Positions 29,826-62,106 of a stretch of DNA of 64,000 bases are shown here, one piece after another. A program made the position numbers and the translations under genes. The stretch comes from Minisyncoccota bacterium (GTDB lineage: Bacteria; Patescibacteriota; Minisyncoccia; Phycocordibacterales; UBA1550): contig JBAZWZ010000002.1 in NCBI GenBank assembly GCA_041660105.1, positions 57,964 to 121,963 on the forward strand, written 5' to 3'. How positions within the stretch are numbered: the stretch's first letter is position 1; every line of letters begins with the position of its first letter. The notes beneath the pieces are model-generated. The model was not told the origin of the DNA, made no database searches, and worked only from the letters and a program-made list of their open reading frames with translations.

Positions 29826-29910
29826 CACATTAAAAGAAAGAGTGGATTGCAATGCAATCCACTCTTTCTTAATTTTGTCTCTACCAATGGAGTTTGAAAA
29901 TCAAAGGTAC
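29826..29910. repeat. 85-bp hairpin repeat, copy 1 (AAGAAAGAGTGGATTGCA / TGCAATCCACTCTTTCTT stem + conserved 45-bp tail)
   Basis: Near-identical to 31064-31148, with compensatory loop changes that preserve the stem. It lies just 3' of the Fic gene. Confidence 0.6.
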
Positions 29911-29948
29911 CTGACCGCTTATTCTTGAGAGTCCGTGGCGAATATTGA

Positions 29949-31010
29949 TTAAATCCTTACATACCTCGTTCCCCTGCCACGGCCGATACGCTTTACTTTT
30001 CCAAGCTCGACGAGACGCTCGAGGGATTTTCTTACGGTCGCGGTAACCATACCAGTTGCACTCGCAATTTCCGCAGGGCTCGCCTCGTGGACTGACGCAA
30101 AGAATTGTAGAACCTCGCTTTGTTTTGGTGATAGGCCTTCCTCGTGTTCCCTTTCCACAAGCGCTAGCGCTCTCACTGCCTGTTCCTTTACGATAGACAA
30201 AAAGAAATTAAGCCAAGGCACGATTGAACTATTTTCCGTCTTAAATGTTTTCTGTGCTTCACGCAGAGCAAGATAGTATTCATCTTTACGTTTCTCGACG
30301 AGTTGCTCGTGCGAGACGTATTGCACAAATGTATAACCAGAGCGAAGGAGAAGCATATTGGTGAGCACACGTGAAAGGCGCCCATTACCATCTTCAAATG
30401 GGTGAATCTTCAAAAACTCTATAAGGAAATTTGCAATAATGAGGAGTGGATGAAAGCGCTTCTTCTCAAGAGCTTCATGTGTCCACAGGACGAGCTCGGT
30501 CATTTCTGCGGGTGTCTGCCATGCGGGGGTTGTTTCGAACACAATACGTACGACTTTGCCGTCTTCGCCGAGCACTCCAACTACATTTTCTTTCTTTTTG
30601 TATTCACCCCTGTGTAGGTCGTCTTTGGTTGAATATTTGAGAAGTTCTTTGTGAAGCGATTGAATAGTACTTTCACGAAGTGCCAGTGTTTGAAAACTAT
30701 CAAAAACATTTTGCAGTGTTTCGAGGTAGCCTTGTACTTCCTGGGAATCGCGGTCTGCGAATTTAGTAATTGAAAGCCCCTGCATTATCTTTTTCACTTC
30801 CTCGTCAGAAAGTTTTGATCCTTCGATACGAGTCGATGCACCTGCTGATGTCACGAGAACCGACTTTCGAAGATTGGTAATTGCCTGTGGCGTCATACGA
30901 ACACCAACACGGAAAACACCACGGGCCTCGTCTATCGCTGCCAAAAGAGCCACAATATGAGGCTCGGGGGTGTTTATTCGGTGGTCAAATTTTCGTGCGT
31001 TATCGTCCAT
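29949..31010 (-). CDS. Fic-family protein (putative AMPylase) with C-terminal wHTH
   Basis: Canonical HPFEDGNGRLSRVL Fic motif. An N-terminal STRIEG (S/T-x-x-x-E-G/N) inhibitory-helix motif suggests class II. Confidence 0.85.
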   Translation of the reverse strand: MDDNARKFDHRINTPEPHIVALLAAIDEARGVFRVGVRMTPQAITNLRKSVLVTSAGASTRIEGSKLSDEEVKKIMQGLSITKFADRDSQEVQGYLETLQNVFDSFQTLALRESTIQSLHKELLKYSTKDDLHRGEYKKKENVVGVLGEDGKVVRIVFETTPAWQTPAEMTELVLWTHEALEKKRFHPLLIIANFLIEFLKIHPFEDGNGRLSRVLTNMLLLRSGYTFVQYVSHEQLVEKRKDEYYLALREAQKTFKTENSSIVPWLNFFLSIVKEQAVRALALVEREHEEGLSPKQSEVLQFFASVHEASPAEIASATGMVTATVRKSLERLVELGKVKRIGRGRGTRYVRI

Positions 31011-31063
31011 ATTTAGTGATACTATCTAACATATGAGATTTTATCACATTTTATTAGATAAAG

Positions 31064-31148
31064 CAAAGAGTGGATTGTCGAAGACAATCCACTCTTTCTT
31101 AATTTTGTCTCTACCAATAGAGTTTGAAAATCAAAGGTACCTGACCGC
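31064..31148. repeat. 85-bp hairpin repeat, copy 2
   Basis: Direct repeat of 29826-29910, upstream of the Fic start. Confidence 0.6.
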
Positions 31149-43200: not shown

Positions 43201-44898
43201 CTCACCCGCATGAACAACTGCCGCAACATCAAACGCTCTTAAATCTATCGCGGATATAGTAATTGCATCCTCAACAAACTCATCCTCCTTATCATTCGCC
43301 CCATAATACGCCTCAGTCTTATCCGTCTTGTACCACAGCCCACCGTTATCAAATATCGTAAACGTAAAACTCAACGAACCGTGCGATACTTCTTTGTAGT
43401 AATCATTGATGCAGTAGGCGAGGTCGGTGTAGTATTCTTCGCCATAACCATTGGCGTAAGTCTTTTCAGGAATGAGCTTGCATGGCTGAGCGGTTGTTGA
43501 CGCTGTTGTGTGGGAAACATCTACTGGCTCCGCGAGAATGATAGCGACGTTAATGTTTTTTGCTGTGCTTGTCGGTGCGAGCCAACCATCTTGTTTTGTC
43601 CATGGCAGATTATCTTGTCCACCAGGGAAAACGTAGGCGGAATCACAGATGTTGTCATTATTTGCATCCCTACAGCCTTCACTTGCTGTATCAAAGTTGC
43701 TCCAGTAGTTGCCACCTATTGGAGGAGCAAGGTTGAATATATCGGTATTTGTGTAGCGAGTATCAATATAAACCTGCGTTGGGTTATTGAGAAAGTTATT
43801 ATTGTATATTTTGTTAATAATAGGCAGACTCCACGGGAAGTTGGATATCCCGCTTACAGCGTTTTTTGAAAAAGTGTTACCAGACAAGGTATTGCCGCTG
43901 GAAACAAAAAAATCGATTCCATTCTTATAGTTATTTAATGCGTTATTCCCGGAAAGGGTGTTGTTATTGGAACCAAAAAGGAAGATTCCGAAAGAATTAT
44001 TTTGAGCAGTGTTGCCAGTCAGAGTGTTGTTATTGGCACCACGGAGAAGGATTCCGCGGCTAGAATTAAATACAGTATTCCTGGTTAGGGTGTTGTTGGG
44101 GCCTACAAGTTCGATTCCATTCGTATTATTCGATATCGTATTGTTGACCAGAGTGTTATAGCTAGAATTGTAGACAAATATTCCATCCGTAAAGTTACTA
44201 ATATTCAAATTCCTGATTGTCACACGCCCTCTCCCGTTAAGATAGACACCGTTCCCCGTGTTATATCCTGTCAGCGTATGGTGGTTACCATCGAGAGTTA
44301 CATTATTACTGTCTATCTGGATGGTTTCGGTGAGGTCTGTGTTCATCGTGCAAACCCTTGTAGTATAATTCCAGCTACCAATCTGAGTACAGTCTCCGCC
44401 CGTTGCGTTGTCGCTAATGAATTTCGTTGAGTGGCGAGGTTGAATAAATACTATATGTGTCTTCGATAAATCTTGTGAGTATGAGTAGCCACCACTTGCA
44501 TCAGTAACAAACTGGTCTAAATTGTGATAGCTGTCTTCATACTTATAGTACGTTGTCGATGTGGCAAAACCAGAGAGGGTGACTTGAGTTGATGTCGCCG
44601 TAGATGAGGCCGATGACTCAACTGTTAATGTTACCATTTCTGGTACGGAGTCCATTTTTAATTTAATCTGCTCTGAACTGTCGAGGGTGACATTGAGATA
44701 TTGACTGTCTGTGATAGTGAAGTGTGTATCATCCCCCTCAGTTGTGCCTGGCATAACAAATGGCTGGGGTATATCAAATACAGGAGGTGGAACTGATTGC
44801 GCGTATGCAAAAGAATTAAATCCAAACAATAAAGCAAGCGCAAACACCGCGCGCACAATAAGACGGATGATAATCTTTTGCATAAAATTGACGGTCAA
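40201..44898 (-). CDS. giant (1565 aa) secreted/surface protein with parallel beta-helix repeats and an HEXXH zinc-metallopeptidase-like (M6/InhA-like) region
   Basis: N-terminal signal peptide. Repeated NNTLTGN/NNTLSGN beta-helix units. VWMHEVGHTVG...VGRWDLMADGDW. A hydrophobic segment (LLFLVLSIILVFVY) mid-protein and Ser/Thr-rich linkers. Confidence 0.75.
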   Translation of the reverse strand: MTVNFMQKIIIRLIVRAVFALALLFGFNSFAYAQSVPPPVFDIPQPFVMPGTTEGDDTHFTITDSQYLNVTLDSSEQIKLKMDSVPEMVTLTVESSASSTATSTQVTLSGFATSTTYYKYEDSYHNLDQFVTDASGGYSYSQDLSKTHIVFIQPRHSTKFISDNATGGDCTQIGSWNYTTRVCTMNTDLTETIQIDSNNVTLDGNHHTLTGYNTGNGVYLNGRGRVTIRNLNISNFTDGIFVYNSSYNTLVNNTISNNTNGIELVGPNNTLTRNTVFNSSRGILLRGANNNTLTGNTAQNNSFGIFLFGSNNNTLSGNNALNNYKNGIDFFVSSGNTLSGNTFSKNAVSGISNFPWSLPIINKIYNNNFLNNPTQVYIDTRYTNTDIFNLAPPIGGNYWSNFDTASEGCRDANNDNICDSAYVFPGGQDNLPWTKQDGWLAPTSTAKNINVAIILAEPVDVSHTTASTTAQPCKLIPEKTYANGYGEEYYTDLAYCINDYYKEVSHGSLSFTFTIFDNGGLWYKTDKTEAYYGANDKEDEFVEDAITISAIDLRAFDVAAVVHAGESDQMNATIPKSKLSTGAWGRTILFWQPPLKIIISEREPVGVWMHEVGHTVGTTITPENTPTPDLYLMGNVGRWDLMADGDWNVADNNVSDPPFMTSFTQEFLGLLSEDIHPKSAYGTYQINSLETSELGDTIFRYNLEENTNSSTDDYYILEARNRNLKIWDSSLPEEKSLVLYRVGASGFLLGKKQTITIPSSPTNSTSTISVDDGVLSVSGETYKDLDKFVEFSTSGDQTVNGKYEIATSITKIPKESFNQNYNGSVLSPLNDFLQYIKGDMFMTPVRPGTIPRNSIPIDELLSGGGLDTRICAVKKMPAPLLFLVLSIILVFVYKKKSVINIQWRKVKIVKVSIWVLWSASVITWGNYLYYLSALSTVVTSYDAGCAMFRTCENLEPCYRNNGFMLSSPLDYTLPDLDLHAITPDGKHIGMNYVTGEYENQIPGSIVSGDNQGIPEWVYVPEGTQVKYYVSAHDNDEFLKQNPGLASTMATTTDSYSLYARTIDPTVGIFTSPILENQTIAPTEEKTYLIDTVGTDVSVQESNDLTAPVTIVMPSGTLGSNDYYTSAVTVALTADDGAPLGEVSSGVADTKYSLDNGTTWNTYSTSTPLVIATEGSTTLQYYSVDNSGNSEAIKTLTFNIDTVAPTIFASDTSAEQLTAGGTLLTVPVTVNDSIDASPTFTTDVPLTQIFAPGVTNILITAHDMAGNIATSSIAITIYSSPAADPDGDGVPNQDDVKPFDATVFVNLIIPSEYSLWEKESFDLPFSVAGKGDVNLILSNTYYRIGTSPVKDSIGTTVPATVTTTDGVITVSFAQSTKELKTYTLTLATTKGNTKERDSIKKKRDHEGDEERRRDLEKELDFAGSPITLGITNTSANKTTSEMSIVNIYDKQQTAQLQYKYKDTNHSTTLLLKSDDTLKLKKGQPLEMTVKVTGIKKDVPFASNIVGNFTMLNVVQEEEHDNDNDRKQTKFSLFFPQSLATTQENITITTTVNGITQMDVVGVRFEE

Positions 44899-59449: not shown

Positions 59450-59767
59450 CTACAGAATTCTTCGAAGCATACGGGTGTTATAAAGCTGGAAACGCCTGCC
59501 TTCAACACTGAGAACACCTTCCCTGATTGCCACTGCTATCACCTCATCCTCAATAAAACCAAGCCTGACTGCGGGGGCTCCACCATCTTCTGAGGGATGA
59601 TAGAACAGTGTGACACTGAAACCCTTGTCCTCCTTAAGGAAATGGAGGGTCTGATTCTTGTCCTCCACATCGACGAGGGCCTCCTTGATGCCATACCCCG
59701 GGTGCGCGGTTGCTGGAGCAGTGTTTGCCCTGGACACAGAGCGAAAACGTTCACTTTTATTCAACAT
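59450..59767 (-). CDS. hypothetical protein (105 aa) upstream of rpmF
   Basis: Position is analogous to the DUF177/YceD genes that often precede rpmF, but the sequence is not clearly recognisable. Confidence 0.35.
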   Translation of the reverse strand: MLNKSERFRSVSRANTAPATAHPGYGIKEALVDVEDKNQTLHFLKEDKGFSVTLFYHPSEDGGAPAVRLGFIEDEVIAVAIREGVLSVEGRRFQLYNTRMLRRIL

Positions 59768-59821
59768 TTACTTCCTTTCTATTGTGTACGTACTAAAACA
59801 AGTATACCACACAAACACGCT

Positions 59822-59953
59822 TTACACAAGACCCTTCAGAAAACTTTTGCGGTGATGCTTGGTGATGCCATTCTTTTTTATTGCTTCGTAGTGTGCGCGG
59901 GTACCGTAGCCTTTGTGTTTTTCAAAACCGTACGCAGGAAACTTTTTTGCAAA
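59822..59953 (-). pseudogene. duplicated 3'-terminal fragment of rnhB (about 42 codons plus stop)
   Basis: The nucleotide sequence is about 85% identical to 60942-61071. It translates to ...[43 protein letters not shown] against rnhB ...[44 protein letters not shown]. Confidence 0.65.
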
Positions 59954-60308
59954 TATGGAAAAGAAAAAGCGCCGTACCAAAAGGTCGTGCGCTCTTGTAT
60001 TTGATGCAGTTACTTGGGAATGTACGTAATTGTTACGTACATCGTGGCGTCGCTCGAAATTGAAGTGGCCACGGAAATGCATTCCTTAACATTCTCTGAA
60101 AGAAACTTTTCCACACCTTTCTCCATTTCATCAAATCTTCCCACAGTATGGCGTGGTTGAGTGAGACAGAACGAAAGCACTTTGCACTTAGGCATCACAT
60201 ACTCCTTAGTTGTGTATGTTCACGGCGACGTGCCAGTGACTCATATGAATTAACAGTAGCATTTTAGTATAATTTTGTCAAGTGCTACAAGACTTTTGCT
60301 ACAGAACT

Positions 60309-60929
60309 TTAAAAATTGCGCCCACAATTTTTTCTTGCTATCAAAACCTCAGCATTATTCACCATAGGAGTCCCGTCCGTACGATTTCGCAATGCACGGG
60401 AGTCCATCTTGTCATAGGCAATAATCTCCCAGTCATTATATATTTCTTTTAGTTCATTTGGTTTGGGATAAAAATTTTTTGTTGATGGATTCTCATTATA
60501 AAAATCTCCCTCTGCCGTAAGAACCGATACGACGTTGAAACCACCAGCCCTTGTTTTTTCTTTCATCTGTTCTATGACTTTTCTTGCAGCAAAATCAGTG
60601 ATGTGCTGAAAAACATAAGAAACTACAATAACATCATAACTCTGGATAACACCAATTTCGACTATGTCTGCAATATGTGAACGAACAACCAAGTTTCTCT
60701 TTTTAGCCTCTTTTTTAAACTTCTCAACTCCAACCCTAGAAAGATCAATGAGTGTAACTTGAAATCCAGCGTCTGCAAGAAAAAGTGCATTTCTCCCTTC
60801 TCCTCCACCTATGTCCAATACTTCGCCACTCTTAATTAACTCTGTAATTTTTTTTACAGCTTGCTGTGGTTTCCCTCCCCTAAAATCAATATTTGGGGTC
60901 GCATAAATTTCATCATATTTATTACTCAT
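60309..60929 (-). CDS. SAM-dependent methyltransferase, TehB-like
   Basis: VLDIGGGEGRNALFLADAGFQVTLIDLS (motif I) and overall similarity to tellurite methyltransferase TehB. It lies between the two rnhB 3' copies. Confidence 0.75.
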   Translation of the reverse strand: MSNKYDEIYATPNIDFRGGKPQQAVKKITELIKSGEVLDIGGGEGRNALFLADAGFQVTLIDLSRVGVEKFKKEAKKRNLVVRSHIADIVEIGVIQSYDVIVVSYVFQHITDFAARKVIEQMKEKTRAGGFNVVSVLTAEGDFYNENPSTKNFYPKPNELKEIYNDWEIIAYDKMDSRALRNRTDGTPMVNNAEVLIARKNCGRNF

Positions 60930-60933
60930 CTGT

Positions 60934-61542
60934 TTATTCTACCACACCCTTCAAAAAACTTTTCCTGTGATGCTTGGTTATGCCGTTCTTTTTGATAGCT
61001 TCGTAGTGCGCTCGGGTGCCGTAACCTTTGTGCTTTTCAAAACCGTGCTCAGGGAACTTTTTTGCAAGAAGTGTCATACGAGCATCGCGCGCGACTTTTG
61101 CCACTATTGAAGCAAGGGCAATAGCAAGCTCCTTTTCGTCGCCCTTTATAATAGTTTCTTGATTCTTGTAATGCTCTGGTGCATAGAGCGAACCATCAAG
61201 AAGAACTTTTGCCTCATCGACATTGTGCTCGATTGCTTCGAGTGAAGCAATCATCGCCGTGCGAATAGCAGACGAAAGTCCCCTTTTATCAATCACGCTC
61301 GGCGCAACAAAAGAAACTGCGCACGAGAGATATCCGAGAGACTCAGCTTCTTTGATTTTGAGTAACCATTCTTCCCTCTTTTTGGGGGTGAGTTTTTTTG
61401 AGTCTTTTATAATAGGAAAAAGTTTTTCAACCTTCTTTTTGTGTTCAGCATAAATACACACAGCGCCGACAGCGACCGGCCCAGCAAGAGGTCCACGACC
61501 AACCTCATCGACACCAATTATGTATTTATACTTCTTCTTCAT
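60934..61542 (-). CDS. rnhB: ribonuclease HII
   Basis: IIGVDEVGRGPLAGPVAVGAV catalytic DEDD motif region, 202 aa. Confidence 0.9.
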   Translation of the reverse strand: MKKKYKYIIGVDEVGRGPLAGPVAVGAVCIYAEHKKKVEKLFPIIKDSKKLTPKKREEWLLKIKEAESLGYLSCAVSFVAPSVIDKRGLSSAIRTAMIASLEAIEHNVDEAKVLLDGSLYAPEHYKNQETIIKGDEKELAIALASIVAKVARDARMTLLAKKFPEHGFEKHKGYGTRAHYEAIKKNGITKHHRKSFLKGVVE

Positions 61543-61620: not shown

Positions 61621-62106
61621 TTACCTTCGGCGCATTTTCTCCATTTCGGAAAGTTGTTTGTCGATTTGTTTATCAACTTTATTCATATCGACATCACGCA
61701 CAGGAATTACGCTGAGACATCGGATAAGGCCATTGTTGTGGACCCCAACGTCCTTCTTCATAATCTCCGCGATTTTCATAGAACGATATCGGGAGAAATG
61801 CCAAGTTGCTAAACAAAGACAGATCAAAACAGCAAAAGAAAATTTTGGAAATCCTAAAGTTGCAAGGACAAGACTTGCAATCATTGCCATTATCGCAATC
61901 ACCGCTTGGCAAATATGCGCATTTCGCATATCCCTCATCATGCTTCTCCGAAATGGCTCTTGCTCGTGAAGTTCTTTAACGTTTTTGGGCAATCGCTGGG
62001 CTATCAACGATTTTGCGCTATTCTGCTTAAATCCTTCAAACAGCAAATATAGACAGATTGTAACCAGCAAAATTGTCCCCAAAACCAAATGTAGGTTGGT
62101 CATCAT
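61621..62106 (-). CDS. hypothetical membrane protein (161 aa)
   Basis: Three hydrophobic helices. It is divergent from dnaE, and the shared upstream region carries copy 3 of the palindromic element. Confidence 0.5.
   Translation of the reverse strand: MMTNLHLVLGTILLVTICLYLLFEGFKQNSAKSLIAQRLPKNVKELHEQEPFRRSMMRDMRNAHICQAVIAIMAMIASLVLATLGFPKFSFAVLICLCLATWHFSRYRSMKIAEIMKKDVGVHNNGLIRCLSVIPVRDVDMNKVDKQIDKQLSEMEKMRRR

Follow-up and report, generated by a model that had tools for sequence, protein, structure and literature searches.

A duplicated rnhB 3' end beside a methyltransferase gene in a Patescibacteria genome: a probable scar of recombination between related lineages

The interval between rnhB, the gene of RNase HII, and rpmF, the gene of ribosomal protein L32, is considered here in a 64,000-nt stretch of DNA (the window) from contig JBAZWZ010000002.1 of a Minisyncoccota bacterium. 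In this interval, a predicted TehB-like methyltransferase gene is bounded by two copies of the rnhB 3' end, an arrangement that an earlier sequence-only reading took for the footprint of an integrase-mediated island. Here we argue that it is probably a scar of inter-lineage recombination, carried out by host functions at a variable site downstream of rnhB. The host belongs to the Patescibacteria (Paceibacteria/Minisyncoccia), and its lineage-named relatives, with 67-78% rnhB identity, are mostly Candidatus Yonathbacteria. The features of the locus, in the direction of transcription, are as follows.

60934..61542, minus strand: rnhB (RNase HII, 202 aa), intact; PF01351, 1.2e-37; copy B makes up the final 42 codons
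60941..61067, minus strand: repeat copy B, the in-gene rnhB 3' end, codons 160-201, ends G-V-V-E-stop
60936..60946, minus strand: TGTGGTAGAAT, putative extended -10 promoter lying within the end of rnhB, stop codon included; the methyltransferase ATG follows after 6 nt
60309..60929, minus strand: TehB-like class I S-adenosylmethionine (SAM)-dependent methyltransferase, 206 aa; PF03848, 6.7e-26
60010..60198, minus strand: ORF62, an orphan open reading frame (ORF) of 62 aa; AAGGAG Shine-Dalgarno sequence, TTGACA upstream (60276-60281)
60020..60042, no strand: palindrome ATGTACGTAA-TTG-TTACGTACAT, perfect 10+3+10, inside the ORF62 3' end
59955..59996, minus strand: terminator-like hairpin and U-run, -17.6 kcal/mol, z = -2.75; abuts copy A
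59826..59952, minus strand: repeat copy A, an orphaned piece of the 3' end of rnhB, of the allele type in which an ABC exporter gene has been deleted, ends G-L-V-stop (TAA 59822-59824)
59953..61067, minus strand: additional block of 1115 nt compared with sister species lacking the ABC exporter (copy B, promoter, methyltransferase, ORF62, terminator)
59801..59829, minus strand: putative promoter of the ORF105-rpmF operon, TTGTGT 59824-59829, 17-nt spacer, TGG-TATACT 59801-59809
59450..59767, minus strand: ORF105, a small ORF, position kept in relatives at 46-67% identity
59157..59375, minus strand: rpmF (ribosomal protein L32), PF01783, 92-94% identical in sister species

A repeat scan of the region revealed one direct-repeat family only, 59826-59952 versus 60941-61067, in which 127 nt are 87% identical at a spacing of 1115 nt; this is also the longest direct repeat of the entire window. 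The two copies become similar at a sharp edge, TTGCAAAAAAG (rnhB codon 159/160), and the longest exact blocks are just 13 nt long, namely TTGCAAAAAAGTT, at the 5' edge of the repeat, and ACGGTTTTGAAAA, the repeats being otherwise imperfect. The left side is continuous rnhB and the right junction, 59952/59953, is abrupt: local alignment against shuffled sequences gave no rnhB likeness upstream of 59953 (z 0.1-0.7), and the 355-nt spacer contains no remnant of rnhB, of the ABC gene or of the downstream DNA of relatives (z below 2.6). A hidden extension of the repeat into this spacer was rejected, no similarity being detectable. The stop codons lie outside the repeat, as copy A continues into a tail ..K-G-L-V-stop and copy B into ..K-G-V-V-E-stop (TAA 60934-60936), two different sequences of different origins. 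Hence, the repeat of about 130 bp and about 85% identity that had been described earlier is real, and not restricted to fewer than 30 bp, but the stop codon is not part of it. The methyltransferase and the 62-aa ORF do lie between the copies, and the palindrome reported there proved slightly larger than had been thought. An 86-aa ORF over copy A (59822-60082) was judged non-coding; its SD-like AAGGA directly abuts the ATG and a terminator-like hairpin lies upstream.

Relatives are referred to below by locus labels, L004 (the outgroup), L020-L027, L029 and L038-L041, the window type being L001. Before any history is read into the repeat, an artefact has to be considered: the contig could be an assembly chimera of two co-occurring strains, and L024, which lacks the ABC exporter, does co-occur with the window type in sample SRR18595301. 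However, the structure is found at 100% identity in contigs from three other data sets (Logan SRR18595301, JGI 3300014208 and ENA ERZ27249449), and is therefore not an assembly artefact. The four independent assemblies, obtained with different assemblers from different samples, are identical across both copies, and at the right junction the longest shared k-mer is no more than 13 nt, so that a chimera is exceedingly improbable.

The 42 codons shared by the two copies differ by 13 synonymous and 3 non-synonymous changes, and the divergence of copies A and B (13-14%) is that seen between species of the genus for this segment. Since the divergence is mostly synonymous, and an orphan fragment cannot undergo purifying selection, the copies derive from rnhB genes that were functional in two separate lineages, and not from local duplication and decay. 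When the copies are compared with seven relatives, copy A shows no private substitution in 117 nt and copy B shows three; displacement of copy A was, therefore, recent, and the description of it as an ancient displaced copy does not hold. At the 18 sites that differ between the copies, the outgroup L004 agrees with copy A at 15 and with copy B at 3. Direct repeats in tandem orientation would also suit a history in which the rnhB 3' end was duplicated in tandem in situ, the copies diverged, and the methyltransferase was inserted between them later. Such a history is very improbable, though, as the pattern of codon changes betrays purifying selection on both copies, copy A carries no change of its own, the tails can be traced to different sources (see below), and no relative has the duplicate.

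What occupies this site in related genomes? The sister species are close to the window (dnaE 96-98% and nusB 96% identical at the protein level, rnhB 87-89%), and a metagenome scan for further relatives yielded at least 11 loci, one of them useful (L029, with rnhB followed by the ABC gene). Three states of the site can be distinguished. In the first, found in L020/L021/L027, L023/L024 and the outgroup L004, there is no cargo: rnhB ends in K-G-L-V-stop and is followed by a conserved TGTGGTATACT promoter, an ORF of 104-137 aa and rpmF, with neither methyltransferase nor duplicated rnhB fragment, which answers the question of whether relatives without the methyltransferase carry the duplication nonetheless. 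In the second, an MsbA-like ABC exporter of 590 aa starts 5-8 nt past the rnhB stop (L022, L026, L029, L038-L041), or else behind an additional 130 nt (L025); rnhB of the exporter-bearing relatives is 71-89% identical. The third, the methyltransferase module with the duplicate, is confined to the window population, at 100% nucleotide identity. In blastn comparisons, window segments 61533->60947 and 59952->58165 both fall on one unbroken stretch of L023 (6007-6593 and 6473-8265, respectively), and likewise in L020; the window, therefore, has an extra block of 1115 nt. Copy A and everything downstream of it (ORF105-rpmF-nusB-rnc) are collinear with the relatives. Separately, in a groundwater contig (L037) a perfect palindrome of ~50 nt (GTAGGTATACACGTATAATATACTATAGTATATTATACGTGTATACCTAC, 85-140) stands immediately after the rnhB stop and is followed at 229-1410 by a 393-aa ORF on the opposite strand that has no Pfam match; this palindrome may be the end of a mobile element.

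The origins of the two rnhB tails can be traced by comparing these states. The exporter ends in RYELHVGL(V/A)-stop in L022, L025 and L038, and, among the best 120 homologues listed (51-100% identity), more than 100 end in GL-x and 56 in GLV. Because GL-x/GLV is the conserved C-terminus of the exporter, the G-L-V-stop tail of rnhB comes from the exporter. The seemingly empty alleles are thus products of exporter deletion between short GGG repeats, whereby K-G of rnhB came to be followed by L-V-stop of the exporter, as can be seen by setting the G|L-V-stop ends of the empty sites (L020 6590-6609, L023 6584-6603, L004 6590-6603) against their exporter counterpart in L022 (4105-4126). The retained piece, CTTGTGTAA, also gives the ORF105-rpmF-nusB-rnc operon its -35-like TTGTGT, which stands 17 nt before TATACT, and this -35 role may explain why it has always been retained. 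The putative operon promoter is also conserved in relatives, where it follows the native stop (L020) or the ABC stop (L022); in the window, its TTGTGT overlaps the last codons and the stop of copy A.

The tail of copy B is of another kind. The final rnhB codons G-V-V-E-stop are encoded by TGTGGTAGAAT, a motif with 2 matches in the window versus 0.12 expected; TGnTAGAAT is an extended -10 element. The 15-mer GGTGTGGTAGAATAA, which comprises the last codons of copy B, is found, identical, 7 nt before the exporter ATG in L022, L025 and L026, and in L025 it lies wholly outside rnhB. Variants of this candidate promoter go along with variant tails, namely GTGATACAAT with GVIQ in L029 and GTGGTAAAAT with NVVK in L038, and many more distant rnhB proteins end in G/N-V/M-V-K/E/Q; on account of these variants and distant tails, the promoter-in-tail form, tied to the exporter, appears to be the widespread and older arrangement. 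Hence, the window joins two allele types, a promoter-type rnhB tail and an exporter-deleted rnhB end, in the order intact rnhB, methyltransferase, ORF62, putative terminator, 127-nt exporter-deleted rnhB end, downstream operon.

Elements of the type TGnTAnnnT stand 5-8 nt before six long ORFs of the window (4373(+), 17117(-), 20610(-), 47671(-), 48968(-) and 60929(-)), which suggests a frequent use of leaderless mRNAs in this genome. The methyltransferase mRNA, too, is probably leaderless and driven by the promoter-type rnhB tail. Two rnhB genes on different backbones, that of L025 and that of protein P0036 (87% and 79% identical to the window rnhB), have in common an unusual extended tail ..HLKNNGEMQ(D/G)-stop; in L025, 130 nt with a 32-aa ORF (2780-2960) separate it from the exporter promoter. 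The arrangement in L025 is a further rearrangement at this spot. A decayed rnhB fragment upstream of the L025 ABC gene was looked for and rejected, just the 15-nt promoter being in common.

The cargo itself differs from its surroundings. The methyltransferase gene has a GC content of 37% (GC3, 29%), compared to 44-51% GC in the neighbouring genes, and is a compositionally foreign, AT-rich gene. Its product exceeds the cut-off of the Pfam TehB model PF03848 (91.4 bits versus 20.4) but stays below those of the NCBIfam TehB equivalogs (83-109 bits versus 218-303), and is therefore labelled TehB-like only, a prediction from family models. The few homologues, with 40-74% identity, have a TGATATACT promoter of their own and unrelated neighbours, namely patatin, OmdA, a hydrolase, a ribosomal-protein cluster or a partial tRNA-like end; neither an rnhB arm, nor a recombinase, nor an ORF62 homologue was present beside them in the contexts examined. 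The closest one (L014, 74% identity) is located just 3' of an apparent tRNA 3' half (..GGTTCAATTCCGGCC.., L014 1-90), a tRNA-like end that is cut by the contig edge and for which ARAGORN makes no call. ORF62 has no family match in Pfam, NCBIfam or PADLOC, and a search of 1.84 billion representative proteins gave solely spurious matches to repeat proteins. A defence-system reading of the methyltransferase and ORF62 was considered and dropped, as PADLOC gave just a generic methyltransferase-domain match (mad2). In the spacer and leader, a search of Rfam for non-coding RNAs produced nothing near any gathering score.

The palindrome in the ORF62 3' end was compared by eye with Xer/dif-like and attC-like sites and rejected as such on its geometry (10-bp arms and a 3-nt spacer). 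Its half-site TACGTACA occurs again at 59785-59792, in the 5' untranslated region of ORF105, where relatives keep it as T(A/T)CGTACA. The window contains 5 copies of this octamer versus 0.8 expected, 3 of them within 260 nt (59785-59792, 60021-60028 and 60034-60041), and it may represent an operator or an RNA hairpin.

Could the module be what is left of an integrase-mediated element, in which the surrogate rnhB 3' end served as attP, with a core such as TTGCAAAAAAGTT, and from which the integrase and most of the cargo were later lost? The footprint of an insertion with reconstitution of the target gene, as had been proposed, stands, since rnhB is intact by virtue of copy B and copy A is collinear with the downstream genes. 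The final architecture, in which the resident 3' end has been displaced, fits such an element, as do the abrupt start of homology at the 13-nt identical block on the 5' edge of the repeat and the unoccupied sites in relatives (L020, L023 and L004, with neither insert nor duplicate). The 13-nt exact blocks suit an att core and, equally, plain homeology. However, no recombinase is encoded in the module or within about 12 kb, and none from ~47.7 kb to the window end, where every ORF is a housekeeping one, syntenic with relatives (FtsJ, S16, RNase R, Gmk, NT5C, HIT, SMC, rnc, nusB-Nudix, rpmF, rnhB, dnaE). Moreover, the tail of the would-be surrogate is the resident exporter promoter of the same locus in relatives, which marks it as a sister haplotype and not as attP. 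The module recurs nowhere among 5.8 billion proteins, in genome and viral scans, or among the metagenome matches listed; the other occupant of the site, the ABC exporter, has different boundaries; and the homologues of the methyltransferase come without the rnhB arm. An extra deletion would also be needed, one that removed the integrase yet spared both junctions and a compact promoter-gene-terminator unit, and the undecayed state of copy A leaves little time for it. The island part of the earlier reading is therefore not supported, an integrase-mediated origin being distinctly unlikely. A phage or viral origin of the module was likewise set aside, the viral scans having returned no match.

The explanation that we favour, and regard as probable, is recombination between two related lineages by host functions. 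The ancestral order would have been rnhB-ABC exporter-ORF105-rpmF, with the extended -10 element of the exporter formed by the last rnhB codons (G-V-V-E/K/Q-stop). In some lineages, the exporter would have been lost between short GGG repeats, so that rnhB ..K-G became joined to L-V-stop and the -35 element of the operon was kept. In another lineage, a foreign AT-rich methyltransferase gene, together with the orphan ORF and the terminator, would have taken the place of the exporter ORF downstream of that promoter. DNA of one such lineage would then have recombined with the other through the host machinery, with no site-specific integrase. Two routes can be envisaged: (a) a single crossover of the Campbell type, in which the resident rnhB 3' end recombined with a circularised fragment that brought the 127-nt homeologous end, and (b) one homologous join combined with one illegitimate join at codon 159/160. 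Either would result in an intact rnhB (copy B), in a methyltransferase expressed from the old exporter promoter, in a putative terminator insulating the module, and in a silent orphan copy A that would still provide the upstream part of the ORF105-rpmF promoter.

The arrangement agrees with known products of host recombination. In the lacZ gene of E. coli, single crossovers of recircularised truncated fragments produced inserts flanked by duplications of 109-950 bp (PMC3240628), and in the window the insert is flanked by a 127-nt duplication of which one copy is collinear with each flank. Homology-facilitated illegitimate recombination leaves one homologous and one illegitimate junction (PMC3240628), and the window has one homologous and one non-homologous junction. 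As for the uptake of DNA, com genes are conserved across the Candidate Phyla Radiation (CPR), and natural transformation and homologous recombination have been demonstrated in Saccharibacteria (PMC10633639; see also PMC12455944).

Several points weigh against this explanation. The donor haplotype, that is, rnhB, promoter, methyltransferase and ORF62 lacking copy A, was not found, and the illegitimate junction, with any microhomology in it, therefore cannot be read. All relatives share ~80-86% nucleotide identity with the window, so that resident and imported rnhB codons 1-159 are not separable. Products of classical homology-facilitated illegitimate recombination have usually lost recipient DNA (PMC3240628), and blastn comparison with the relatives that lack the exporter gives no sign of such a loss here. 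Natural transformation has not been shown beyond Saccharibacteria (PMC10633639). Finally, a site-specific recombinase acting in trans may be compatible with the sequence. Chimerism within rnhB was looked for by segment-wise and sliding identity against L004, L020, L022, L023 and L025, and no breakpoint emerged; with these relatives all equally distant and synonymous sites almost saturated, resolution is precluded.

The same recombination could also have run in the opposite direction, such that the window lineage already had rnhB-promoter-methyltransferase-ORF62, and copy A with its downstream flank was imported. In this case, a linear fragment of an ABC-deleted relative, from rnhB codon 160 to ORF105-rpmF, would have taken the place of the downstream region by homology-facilitated illegitimate recombination anchored on the right. 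The flanks are indeed mosaic. On the left, the membrane-like 161-aa ORF is nearest to the exporter-bearing L025 (47% identity versus 27-32% for others), and on the right ORF105 is nearest to L023, which lacks the exporter (67% versus 46% for L025). Insertion plus replacement is a standard outcome of this kind of recombination (PMC3240628), and no circular intermediate would be needed. Yet small ORFs evolve fast, so that the mosaic signal is weak, and the core genes on either side are equidistant from all sister species. This mosaicism gives only a hint as to the direction of transfer, and import of copy A appears unlikely, although less so than an integrase-mediated origin.

Two small ORFs next to the module deserve a comment of their own. 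ORF105 is fast-evolving; the first recognisable core gene downstream of the module is rpmF. The membrane-like ORF between dnaE and rnhB (161 aa, window 61621-62106) is 27-47% identical to its positional counterparts of 102-112 aa, compared to 96-98% for dnaE of the same species, and is a very fast-evolving or exchanged small gene.

A bolder reading, which we consider quite doubtful, is that the methyltransferase and ORF62, together with the 127-nt rnhB arm and the captured promoter, constitute a recombinase-free, homology-armed cassette. Its low standing is due to the single occurrence of the module. Were it correct, the cassette would pass between related Patescibacteria through natural transformation and Campbell-type insertion, its surrogate end sparing the target gene, and would represent a minimal mobile unit wholly dependent on the competence and RecA of the host. 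Elsewhere in the window there is a second single-gene module flanked by a duplication: a Fic/DOC gene that also encodes a winged-helix domain (29949-31010; PF02661, 1.5e-17) lies between the copies of a 64-nt direct repeat (29855-29918 and 31085-31148, 98% identical, 1230 nt apart), each of which has a terminator-like hairpin at its end, and the module is upstream of a NYN-domain gene. If the cassette reading were true, this Fic module (29855-31148) would be another example. The window also contains, at 43862-44056, three tandem units of ~66 nt with 62-72% identity, which probably are a coding repeat.

In its kind, the gene exchange described here is ordinary, a fresh instance of a known process, and the understanding of integration mechanisms is unchanged by it; few such cases, though, have been worked out in this phylum. 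The scar provides a clean, datable case of ultra-small, uncultivated Patescibacteria exchanging single accessory genes across species at a fixed chromosomal spot without mobile-element machinery, and is consistent with competence and homologous recombination driving the gene flux in these organisms. For annotators, it implies that promoters can be the last codons of the upstream gene, that the C-terminus of RNase HII may be rewritten by rearrangements of this kind, and that a seemingly empty site can be a deletion scar.

It remains to place the locus among known systems. As in the Campbell-type single crossovers in E. coli lacZ (PMC3240628), the insert is flanked by a duplication of the incoming homologous segment (109-950 bp there, 127 nt here), no recombinase is necessary, and the target gene can stay intact. 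Unlike in that experiment, the arms are homeologous (87%) and not identical, the event was a natural one, between lineages, and a circular intermediate can only be surmised from the sequence. The locus resembles, too, the homology-facilitated illegitimate recombination of Acinetobacter baylyi, Streptococcus pneumoniae and Pseudomonas stutzeri (PMC3240628) in combining a homologous with an abrupt non-homologous junction and in the ~1 kb of foreign DNA, and the host belongs to a phylum with com genes and one transformable member (PMC10633639). It departs from this type in that the recipient segment has been retained as a duplicate, typical products being those in which recipient DNA is deleted.

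Integrative elements and islands that insert at the 3' ends of genes and bring a surrogate 3' end are exemplified by tRNA/tmRNA islands and by ICESt1/ICESt3 at fda. With these, the locus shares the reconstituted target gene, the displaced resident end and the imperfect direct repeats that bound the insert. In contrast to them, it has no integrase, no exact att core longer than 13 nt, no recurrence and just 1 kb of cargo, and its surrogate end is a sister allele of the same locus, including the promoter of that locus. Finally, chromosomal hot spots are sites of accessory-gene turnover between conserved core genes. The rnhB-rpmF interval behaves similarly, holding the exporter, nothing or the methyltransferase in close species. 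Unlike in such hot spots, the interval is very small and is occupied by one gene at a time, and the junctions fall within promoter and gene-tail sequence, so that each rearrangement rewrites the C-terminus of rnhB.

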